In this document: one piece after another, positions 15,742 through 20,216 of the stretch
Layout of the letters: each line of letters starts with the position of its first letter
How positions within the stretch are numbered: position 1 is the first letter of the stretch
Source of the DNA: a virus
Taxonomy: Duplodnaviria > Caudoviricetes
Length of the DNA: 64,000 nucleotides
Virus record (IMG/VR): IMGVR_UViG_3300020465_001196
Strand: one strand, 5' to 3'
Position numbers and translations under genes: made by a program
Notes under the pieces: generated by a model
What the model was told of the DNA's origin: nothing
The model's input: the letters and a program-made list of their open reading frames with translations, nothing else
The model's database searches: none

Positions 15742-15869
15742 TAGTAACTCGCATATACTACAAATAAGATACAAGCAATGAATCCTGCAATCAATACATG
15801 ATTACCAAGATTCCACCAACTTGTACCTACTGTGTGTTTGTTTTTTGGATCTATAAATTTATTTTGCAT
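15741..15869 (-). CDS. Small 42-aa membrane protein (not in ORF track)
   Basis: MQNKFIDPKNKHTVGTSWWNLGNHVLIAGFIACILFVVYASY; TAATG coupling at both ends. Confidence 0.65.
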   Translation of the reverse strand: MQNKFIDPKNKHTVGTSWWNLGNHVLIAGFIACILFVVYASY

Positions 15870-16195
15870 TAATCTCTTGTTTGTAAATGTTCTGGTATTG
15901 TATCAACACAAAAGAATGTTAAATTTTCTTCTTCAACTGCTCTCATTACTTTACAATCTTTACCAGTTACTTTTGATATAATATGATCAGTTGTTGTTTT
16001 TTCACCATTTAATGTTTGTGCAATATCTACACCAGTTTTTGCAATAGTAATTGTTTTATAAGTTTGATAAGAACCAGATGCTGTTGCTGTTGCACTACTT
16101 CCAACTAAAAAACTAGGGGCCGCACATCCTTGTAATAATACAAGTACACTTATCCATAACAACATTAAAAATAATATTGGTCTGTCATTCATCAT
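15869..16195 (-). CDS. Putative lipoprotein
   Basis: Hydrophobic leader with lipobox LQGC. Confidence 0.65.
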   Translation of the reverse strand: MMNDRPILFLMLLWISVLVLLQGCAAPSFLVGSSATATASGSYQTYKTITIAKTGVDIAQTLNGEKTTTDHIISKVTGKDCKVMRAVEEENLTFFCVDTIPEHLQTRD

Positions 16196-16638
16196 ACTTT
16201 TCTACCTGCTGTCTTTAAATCTTCTCTTGCTACTACCATATAAGGTCCTTTATTATATGCTGGTGCAATTGAATATTGTCTACTTACTTCTAATCTTTCT
16301 TTTTCTTCACGCCAATTTCTTGTAGCACCACCACCAATTTTATTACTCAACTTAGGTTCTTGTTTGGCAGGAGTGGAAGGATTCGAACCCTCACTTACGG
16401 TTTTGGAGACCGACGTGCTAACCGTTGACACTACACTCCTAGTTGTAGTAACGGGTGGCTTGTATTTGCCACGTCTATAATCAATATAATCTTGCTCTGT
16501 CATTTGTGGTAACCCTTTGCTTTTTAAAAATTTATTTTGTTCTTTGAACCCTTGCATATAATATTCAGTTTTCTTAGGTTTAGTCTTTCGCTTCTTTGTA
16601 TTCAGAGTGGTTAAGCCACGTTCTAAGTGCATTGTCAT
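16192..16638 (-). CDS. Basic phage protein whose linker is encoded by a tRNA-Trp gene
   Basis: Open frame runs through the tRNA; protein-like N-terminus (MTMHLERGLTTLN) and C-terminus (IAPAYNKGPYMVV); sigma70 promoter upstream. Confidence 0.7.
   Translation of the reverse strand: MTMHLERGLTTLNTKKRKTKPKKTEYYMQGFKEQNKFLKSKGLPQMTEQDYIDYRRGKYKPPVTTTRSVVSTVSTSVSKTVSEGSNPSTPAKQEPKLSNKIGGGATRNWREEKERLEVSRQYSIAPAYNKGPYMVVAREDLKTAGRKV
16365..16440 (-). tRNA. trnW: tRNA-Trp(CCA)
   Basis: 76-nt cloverleaf: acceptor AGGAGUG/CACUCCU, anticodon loop CUCCAAA, GGUUCGAAUCC T-arm, encoded CCA; U27-U43 mismatch. Confidence 0.88.
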
Positions 16639-16689
16639 AGTATTAATATAACACATATTAGTCTTTTGTCAACCAAAAAGACTAATCTT

Positions 16690-17943: not shown

Positions 17944-18600
17944 TTATTTGGTTGATTGTTCATTGGTTGGTTTTTGTAAAACGAAAACTAAATTTCTTTC
18001 GTCAAACGGTTTATCTGGATCATTTTGATCAGTTAGTTGAATAGTAAAATCAGTAGCAACTAAAATGTGCCATCCTGTTCTCATCATTAATGCTCCCCAC
18101 ATTTTAACATCCATAATTGAATAATGGTTCGCAATTCTTTCTAACGGTCTATGATTATTTGGTGCAGGCATTTCAATATACATTTTTCCGCCTGGTTTAC
18201 ACACTCTAAAATATTCCATTAATGTAAAGTATGGAAACGGTGAATGTTCTAGACAATGTCTTGAAAACATAAAGTCATAACTGTTATCTTCAAACGTCAT
18301 AAAAGATTGATCCATGTTTTCACATTTAAATCCTCTTTCAATAGTTTTGTCAACATCTTCTTGACTCATTGTAATACCTTGTAAGTTTTCAAAACCAGCT
18401 TCTTTAAATTTTGTCATTGCATACCCTTGTCCACAACCAATATCTAAAATAGAGATTGATTTATCTTCACCTATTTGATTTTCTAAAAGGTCTTTTACTA
18501 CCATATCTATCATACGTGTATGCATTGGAGTATCTGGTTCAGAGTATACTTCCGTTTTAATTAATTCTAAAAATGCTTCTATTTTTTTACTGTTTTCCAT
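17944..18600 (-). CDS. Class I SAM-dependent methyltransferase
   Basis: ILDIGCGQG, FSRHCLEHSPFP; start set at MENSKK after tRNA-Gly. Confidence 0.88.
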   Translation of the reverse strand: MENSKKIEAFLELIKTEVYSEPDTPMHTRMIDMVVKDLLENQIGEDKSISILDIGCGQGYAMTKFKEAGFENLQGITMSQEDVDKTIERGFKCENMDQSFMTFEDNSYDFMFSRHCLEHSPFPYFTLMEYFRVCKPGGKMYIEMPAPNNHRPLERIANHYSIMDVKMWGALMMRTGWHILVATDFTIQLTDQNDPDKPFDERNLVFVLQKPTNEQSTK

Positions 18601-18636
18601 TTTATTTTTCTTTACATTATTATTTATACTTTTATT

Positions 18637-18711
18637 TGGAGCGGGCAGAGGGATTCGAACCCTCGACCCCTTCGTTGGCAACGAAGTGCTCTACCACTGA
18701 GCTATGCCCGC
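18637..18711 (-). tRNA. trnG: tRNA-Gly(GCC)
   Basis: GCGGGCA acceptor, anticodon arm CUUCG-UUGCCAA-CGAAG, T-arm, CCA. Confidence 0.96.
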
Positions 18712-20056: not shown

Positions 20057-20060
20057 ACAG

Positions 20061-20216
20061 TTAGCATAACTCATAAGCAGGATTCTGTTCATTGCTATCA
20101 TTTACCTTTGCGTCCTACCCTGTGTCCCGGCAGTTGTTGACACTCTACTTGGACTTGCACATATCTGCCTGTGTCCTGACTTTCCTCTGTTTCCAGCGAT
20201 AGCCCGGTTATGCTAA
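20061..20216 (-). ncRNA. rnpB: Minimal RNase P RNA (catalytic domain only)
   Basis: GAGGAAAGUCAGGA and AACAGAAUCCUGCUUA form P4 with bulged U; P1, P2, P3, P5, P6, P15 (GGU loop) and P16 can all be built; CR IV AGGUAAAUGA present. Confidence 0.88.

Follow-up and report, generated by a model that had tools for sequence, protein, structure and literature searches.

A tRNA-Trp gene nested in frame within a small conserved protein-coding gene of marine giant phages

The nested tRNA and its host gene

The window analyzed here, a stretch of 64,000 nucleotides of phage DNA with a GC content of 31%, carries six scattered tRNA genes, and its genes lie almost all on the minus strand. One of the six, a tRNA-Trp(CCA) gene at 16365-16440 (minus), is 76 nt long with an encoded CCA end and lies wholly inside a complete CDS of the same strand (16192..16638, 148 codons plus stop). 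ARAGORN calls it with anticodon CCA, and Rfam model RF00005 scores it at 58.4 bits (E 4.8e-10, against a gathering score of 29); the cloverleaf has stems of 7/4/5/5 bp. The surrounding ORF, which extends over 16192..16656 (minus), stays open through the whole tRNA. Homologs begin at ATG 16638, which identifies this codon as the conserved start and gives a gene length of 447 nt. The first base of the tRNA falls on a codon boundary, and the tRNA is read as 25 residues (67-91 of the 148) with one base left over that opens the following codon, while stop codons are present in both other frames. A complete same-strand tRNA-Trp in frame within a CDS, starting on a codon boundary and free of stops, is what the initial annotation had described, and the description holds down to the exact 25-residue peptide that it gave. 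The nested arrangement is not an assembly artefact, since public sequencing runs from 11 studies contain the stretch.

Bacterial TrpRS recognizes its substrate by G73, the CCA anticodon and a first pair of the A1-U72 type. In our alignment of nested tRNAs (A3), the anticodon CCA at 35-37 and G73 are invariant, with the first pair being A1-U72 in six sequences and G1-U72 in four. By these features the nested element appears to be a genuine elongator tRNA-Trp gene of bacterial type. It is also distinguished by its surroundings. Among the 20 tRNAs of the window and of G001, an IMG/VR record of 328,149 bp with direct terminal repeats that is rated complete and is 93-97% identical to the window over this stretch, long open flanks on both sides are seen for the nested Trp gene only (76 and 56 codons), and were not found for the other five tRNAs of the window or for 13 others in G001. 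The match to this record marks the source as an uncultured marine jumbo phage. G001 itself has 16 tRNA matches, of which the one for Trp is the nested gene. Elsewhere in the window, a 245-residue methyltransferase ORF with a TTG start (17944-18711, minus) extends into the 3' part of a tRNA-Gly (18637-18711). The real start of this gene is probably an internal Met downstream of the tRNA-Gly, making the overlap an artefact of ORF calling and no second nested tRNA.

A protein-database search with the host protein returned 141 matches, most of them over 96% of the query. With so many matches of this extent, the open ORF around the tRNA goes beyond chance. A scan of IMG/VR added 422 loci encoding relatives, and the family consists of small genes conserved among marine giant phages. 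A search of 50,697 phage records by blastn and tblastn found no close cultured relative and gave matches to the tRNA alone, plus weak matches to hypothetical proteins of Pelagibacter phage Mosig and Methylophilales phage Melnitz. Pfam has no family for the protein, the ESM Atlas returned no usable match, and Foldseek returned no match against the PDB at E <= 0.001. The phage protein family phrog_4593, of unknown function, matches weakly (E 0.001-0.005; 0.003 for the window gene) and in the C-terminal part only.

The family alignment falls into three parts, a basic conserved N-terminal part, a variable linker, and a C-terminal core that is almost invariant. The first of these corresponds to the 66 codons upstream of the tRNA (16441..16638, minus), with a Lys/Arg-rich start followed by two confidently predicted helices, and the last lies in the 57-residue conserved part that follows the tRNA (16192..16364, minus), which comprises the remainder of the linker, a C-terminal domain predicted as a helix and a beta-hairpin, and the stop codon. 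An AlphaFold2 model, built with a 60-sequence alignment, places the two helices at residues 24-56, with pLDDT above 90 across 21-60, leaves residues 61-108 structureless, most residues of 73-104 having a pLDDT below 50, and gives the C-terminal helix and hairpin a pLDDT of about 70-75. The tRNA-encoded residues are thus predicted to sit in the disordered linker that separates the two conserved domains, in agreement with the linker role originally proposed for them. The N-terminus of the family always reads Met-Thr-Met.

Directly downstream lies a lipoprotein-like gene (15869..16195, minus), whose ATG overlaps the stop of the nested-tRNA gene as ATGA (16192-16195). Such an overlap is typical of translational coupling. 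It occurs likewise in L001, L002, L204 and L211, and is kept in tRNA-bearing and tRNA-less relatives alike. Coupling of this kind would give ribosomes a second reason to reach the end of the nested-tRNA gene. The downstream product has a signal peptide with a lipobox Cys, and the gene pair is syntenic in relatives.

Conservation across lineages and selection on RNA and protein

This nested tRNA, always read in one and the same frame, recurs in the gene across 13 distinct DNA lineages (the window, L001, L204, L211, L213, L232, L004, L102, L005, L206, L208, L209 and L215), whose flanking proteins range from 98% down to about 50% identity to that of the window. Frames and lengths were measured in 12 of these; L232 was checked at the tRNA and the 5' junction alone. 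In all 12, the tRNA begins on a codon boundary and lies in its sole open frame, and the ORF is intact, a count that carries a bias towards intact frames because homolog DNA was mostly found via predicted proteins. The stretches on either side of the tRNA vary in length, 195-252 nt upstream and 150-171 nt downstream, yet are multiples of three throughout the 12. Loci retrieved by the tRNA sequence alone, regardless of protein integrity, also have intact frames, four of four, comprising L081-L083 from IMG/VR and L102, a marine metagenome contig. The last of these was the sole relevant match in a metagenome scan with a loosened tRNA pattern, which otherwise returned mainly tRNA-Trp genes of soil bacteria.

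Most family members appear to carry no tRNA. Among the best 80 of the 422 IMG/VR loci, the tRNA lies inside the gene in three (L001, L004 and L005). Syntenic orthologs without it, such as L002, are single uninterrupted ORFs with an unrelated linker; the neighbors of the L002 gene match those of the window, with a dehydrogenase-like gene upstream and a lipoprotein gene downstream that shares the stop/start overlap. Comparison of homologs with and without the insertion, as put forward in the initial annotation, therefore sets single ORFs in the tRNA-less orthologs beside a maintained frame in the tRNA-bearing ones. The possibility that tRNA-less linkers are decayed tRNAs was considered and rejected, as Rfam searches of L002 and L003 are empty at E <= 1 and local alignments are insignificant, with 31/500 and 463/500 shuffles scoring equally well.

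Within the tRNA, it is the RNA structure that is conserved. Across 10 distinct nested-tRNA sequences, 98.6% of cloverleaf cells are paired, versus 44-55% after sliding of the partners. Covariation scores 0.193, versus 0.110 in shuffles (0/500 reach the observed value) and at most 0.039 with slid partners. Compensatory changes are seen at pairs 28-44 (UA/GC), 30-42 (GC/UA) and 51-63 (GU/GC/CG/UA) of the alignment. At the codon level, the synonymous difference between clades is 0-0.15 in the 25 tRNA codons, versus 0.55-0.9 (saturated) in the flanks, and within the tRNA codons pN is about equal to pS. Frozen synonymous sites, together with a pN that tracks pS, place the constraint on the nucleotides of the tRNA segment and not on the peptide that they encode.

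The features expected of a precursor are conserved as well. The nucleotide immediately upstream of the tRNA is a U(-1) in every one of the 13 lineages, by way of five different codons (ACT, AAT, CCT, AGT and CAT), against a 34% share of T at third codon positions of these genes. A preference of RNase P for U at this position was reportedly described by Zahler, Christian and Harris (2003). In bacterial RNase P RNA, it is A248 that makes contact with nucleotide -1 (PMC2794163). At the other end, the GCCA terminus (G73 plus the encoded CCA) is invariant among nested tRNAs, as is the 12-bp acceptor/T stack. As judged from sequence, then, the nested tRNA would be a canonical substrate of bacterial RNase P.

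These observations bear on whether the tRNA works at all. The protein might be functional and the tRNA not, with the tRNA segment retained as captured linker codons, or as an RNA structure serving in pausing, mRNA stability or recombination. Imperfections in the cloverleaf speak for such a view. The window copy has a U-U mismatch topping the anticodon stem (alignment pair 28-44), in L208 this stem contains an A-C mismatch, and the Rfam score of the window tRNA-Trp is lower than those of the other tRNAs of the phage (58 versus about 75 bits). Against it, however, are the double changes that preserve pairing at three stem positions, the retention of all universal tRNA features, and the encoded CCA. 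Captured linker codons would also be hard to reconcile with a peptide that is not the target of selection, as the frozen synonymous sites indicate, and the conservation of U(-1) and the standing of this gene as the sole tRNA-Trp in a complete genome with about 15 other tRNAs likewise argue for a working tRNA. We consider a non-working tRNA very unlikely.

The flanks show selection of another kind. In tRNA-bearing genes, dN/dS is 0.10-0.46 upstream of the tRNA and 0.02-0.38 downstream, where dS ranges from 0.3 to saturated. Both flanks, the C-terminal domain included, are thus under purifying selection at the protein level. No in-frame ATG precedes the conserved core of the C-terminal domain in 12 of the 13 lineages, the window among them; since this domain lacks a start codon of its own, it can be made only by ribosomes that read through the tRNA. 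The converse alternative, in which the tRNA is functional but the ORF is dying or dispensable, its frame open by chance or merely to bring ribosomes to the downstream gene, fits with two observations. The ATGA overlap means that read-through could matter for coupling alone, and the protein has no function recognisable from Pfam, PHROG, the ESM Atlas or Foldseek. Yet values of dN/dS far below 1 on both sides, with dS saturated between clades, are not those of a dying gene, the C-terminal core is almost invariant across the family, and neither a stop nor a frameshift has entered the frame in 13 lineages of a genome with 31% GC. We regard this reading as very unlikely. The comparative data indicate that the tRNA and the full-length reading frame are both maintained by selection in many lineages.

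Transcription and the proposed processing into alternative products

A sigma-70-type promoter lies immediately upstream of the gene at 16645..16672 (minus), with TTGACA, a 16-nt spacer and a TG-extended TATATT, an 11/12 match to consensus. Its -10 hexamer ends 6 nt ahead of the ATG, and homologs with and without the tRNA alike retain the -35, the -10 and their distance to the ATG. It is the sole strong promoter-like site and lies upstream of the CDS, as had been noted in the initial annotation. Its position, together with the constant Met-Thr-Met start (window 16636-16672, minus), suggests a leaderless or nearly leaderless mRNA for the gene, in tRNA-bearing and tRNA-less members alike. A perfect 10-bp inverted repeat with an 8-nt loop (window 16658-16685), centered on the -35 hexamer and kept in L001, L211 and L213, could be an operator or a hairpin.

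An internal promoter within the N-terminal codons could, in principle, drive the tRNA from a separate transcript, so that the overlap would amount to packing, free of any competition between translation and processing. There is a candidate for such a promoter, a sigma-70-like 9/12 match (TTACCA, an 18-nt spacer and TATATT) at 16512-16483, about 40 nt before the tRNA. Matches of this quality, however, occur near background, with 13 found versus 6.6 expected, and the -10-like hexamer coincides with codons of a conserved Tyr-Ile-Asp-Tyr motif that is present in tRNA-less homologs too. Moreover, transcripts from the upstream promoter would still include the tRNA and would still be RNase P substrates. 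Separate transcription is accordingly regarded as unlikely.

Assembled contigs from RNA libraries provide a limited view of the transcripts. A 499-nt metatranscriptome contig from one sample, identical to the window over 15996-16491, bridges both boundaries of the tRNA, and a second contig (run X16, same metatranscriptome sample) covers 16116-16363 and starts 2 nt past the tRNA 3' end; being assembled, such contigs may include DNA, and they show neither ends nor strand. Together they hint faintly at an unprocessed form and a downstream fragment. The end of the second contig may be a processing product, or may mark where the assembly graph broke at the conserved tRNA. Gaps in RNA-library coverage were given no weight.

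The phage also encodes an RNase P-like RNA of 158 nt (20058-20215, minus), found with Rfam RF00010 (bacterial RNase P class A) under relaxed thresholds. The match scores 71 bits (E 1.2e-21), short of the gathering score of 100. It reaches both ends of the model but lacks most of the specificity domain, and the element lies directly upstream of a tRNA-Ala. G001 has the same RNA at 93% identity, and it was not detected in four other records that are 13-35% complete, two of them tRNA-bearing. The initial annotation had raised its possible use in processing; nothing was found that ties the RNase P-like RNA to the nested tRNA in particular, and host RNase P would suffice.

In light of these results, we think it likely that the locus has a dual use, with a tRNA-Trp gene nested in frame in the codons of a disordered linker and a transcript that gives either tRNA or protein. 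The strong sigma-70-type promoter would transcribe the tRNA as part of the mRNA, 198 nt from the mRNA start. Ribosomes crossing the 76 nt would make the full-length protein with its 25 tRNA-encoded linker residues, and, in reading through, would also reach the stop that overlaps the start of the next gene. Should the cloverleaf fold first, RNase P would cut between 16441 and 16440, and 3' nucleases would trim to the encoded CCA, releasing the phage's only tRNA-Trp. The cut would leave a 5' fragment lacking a stop and a 3' fragment lacking a start codon. One transcript would therefore serve for one product or the other. Each transcript thus probably yields tRNA or full-length protein, as would follow from the action of RNase P on any precursor. 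Processing, the mutual exclusivity of the products and the balance of the two outcomes are what we infer. The initial annotation went further in calling this arrangement a switch, which we do not retain, as no evidence of regulation was found. Excision of the tRNA in the manner of an intron, with rejoining of the flanks, was rejected, as 76 is not a multiple of three, so that rejoining would shift the frame, and the tRNA is always in its only open frame.

A more elaborate version of the dual use can be entertained, although we regard it as doubtful. Here, the locus would act as a translation-sensing valve that sets ribosome loading against tRNA folding, with tRNA-Trp and the protein regulated reciprocally and the tRNA serving in addition as a portable patch of homology. 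Efficient ribosome loading on a leaderless early mRNA would keep the cloverleaf unfolded and yield protein, while faltering translation would let the tRNA fold and be released by RNase P. Translation might falter where Trp-tRNA is limiting at the conserved Trp codon 11-18 codons downstream, or upon host shut-off. Faltering might also come with altered RNase P activity, as the mini RNase P RNA of the phage accumulates. The patch of tRNA homology, for its part, would let the linker cassette move between co-infecting phages.

Relation to known nested tRNAs and evolutionary history

Same-strand, same-frame overlap of an RNA gene with a protein gene is, to our knowledge, rare outside organelles, with selC in selB as the one published bacterial case, itself a prediction. 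Ordinary phage tRNA genes, such as those of T4 and T5, are intergenic, either single or in clusters, and are co-transcribed with mRNAs and released by RNase P. The nested tRNA resembles these in lying within a longer transcript and in having the features of a canonical RNase P substrate, but differs in that it is inside a CDS and is itself read as codons. A full-text literature search found no phage case of a nested tRNA.

The closest parallel is selC, the gene for tRNA-Sec, which bioinformatic prediction places within selB ORFs of Alphaproteobacteria, at their 3' end (Mukai 2021, PMC8124441). That study presented it as the first case of a tRNA nested inside an ORF of bacteria and put forward an either/or processing model (PMC8124441). 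The two systems share a whole same-strand tRNA, free of stops, inside an ORF and conserved across lineages, a host ORF whose stop overlaps the start of the next ORF (here, the ATGA at 16192-16195), and a proposed tRNA processing that leaves a non-stop mRNA, so that protein and tRNA are alternatives. They differ in several respects. In selB, the tRNA encodes an extension of the C-terminus that no conserved domain follows, and protein and tRNA act in one pathway, whereas here the tRNA lies between two conserved domains. The present tRNA, moreover, is an ordinary elongator species carried by a virus and is not known to be linked in function to the protein around it, and the trait is patchy within the gene family, requiring at least three gains, losses or transfers. 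The conserved domain downstream, being under selection, provides evidence of translation that the selB case lacks. The present locus would therefore be a variant of the selB-selC arrangement, not identical to it.

A mitochondrial example, a tRNA-Lys inside cox1 of Armadillidium vulgare for which alternative processing has been proposed, is described in the same article (PMC8124441). As presented there, the tRNA is likewise wholly within the coding region and in direct orientation, but is a reduced tRNA of 60 nt in an extremely compact organelle genome, in contrast to the canonical 76-nt cloverleaf seen here in a 328-kb phage genome that has ordinary intergenic tRNAs elsewhere. The arrangement also recalls Rickettsia palindromic elements and inteins, which share with it an insertion into a permissive, flexible part of a protein that is tolerated because the frame stays open. 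Here, the inserted unit differs in being a functional RNA gene of exact tRNA length; features of inteins or ribozymes are absent, and the tRNA model accounts for the entire insert.

Several aspects make the locus useful beyond its rarity. The conserved downstream domain and the covariation offer internal evidence for translation and for upkeep of the tRNA at once. The small 447-nt gene with its own promoter would be a clean system in which to measure competition between ribosomes and RNase P for one RNA. For annotation, a caution arises, as gene callers and tRNA finders both report the nested DNA and pipelines usually drop one of the two calls.

The distribution of the tRNA within the family points to a complex history. 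In a tree built from the flanks only, tRNA-bearing genes form four groups interleaved with tRNA-less genes, and the well-supported branches force at least three changes, be they gains, losses or transfers. A tree with the tRNA-bearing genes as a single group was accordingly rejected; none of the bootstrap trees (0) unites them. The groups have tRNA signatures of their own, such as G1 in one and an anticodon stem topped by a G-C pair in another, which implies that the tRNA diverged along with its host gene within groups. No extended cassette flanks common to the clades were found. Either one old insertion followed by several in-frame losses, or spread by recombination via the conserved flanks, would account for this pattern.

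Two further sequences involve the tRNA at a junction. Protein P0007, from a Logan contig, has an N-terminal part from the window's group fused within the tRNA to a C-terminal part from another group. Protein P0103 begins among the tRNA codons and continues as aminotransferase-like sequence. Each reflects either recombination at the tRNA or a chimeric assembly across the shared 76-nt repeat.
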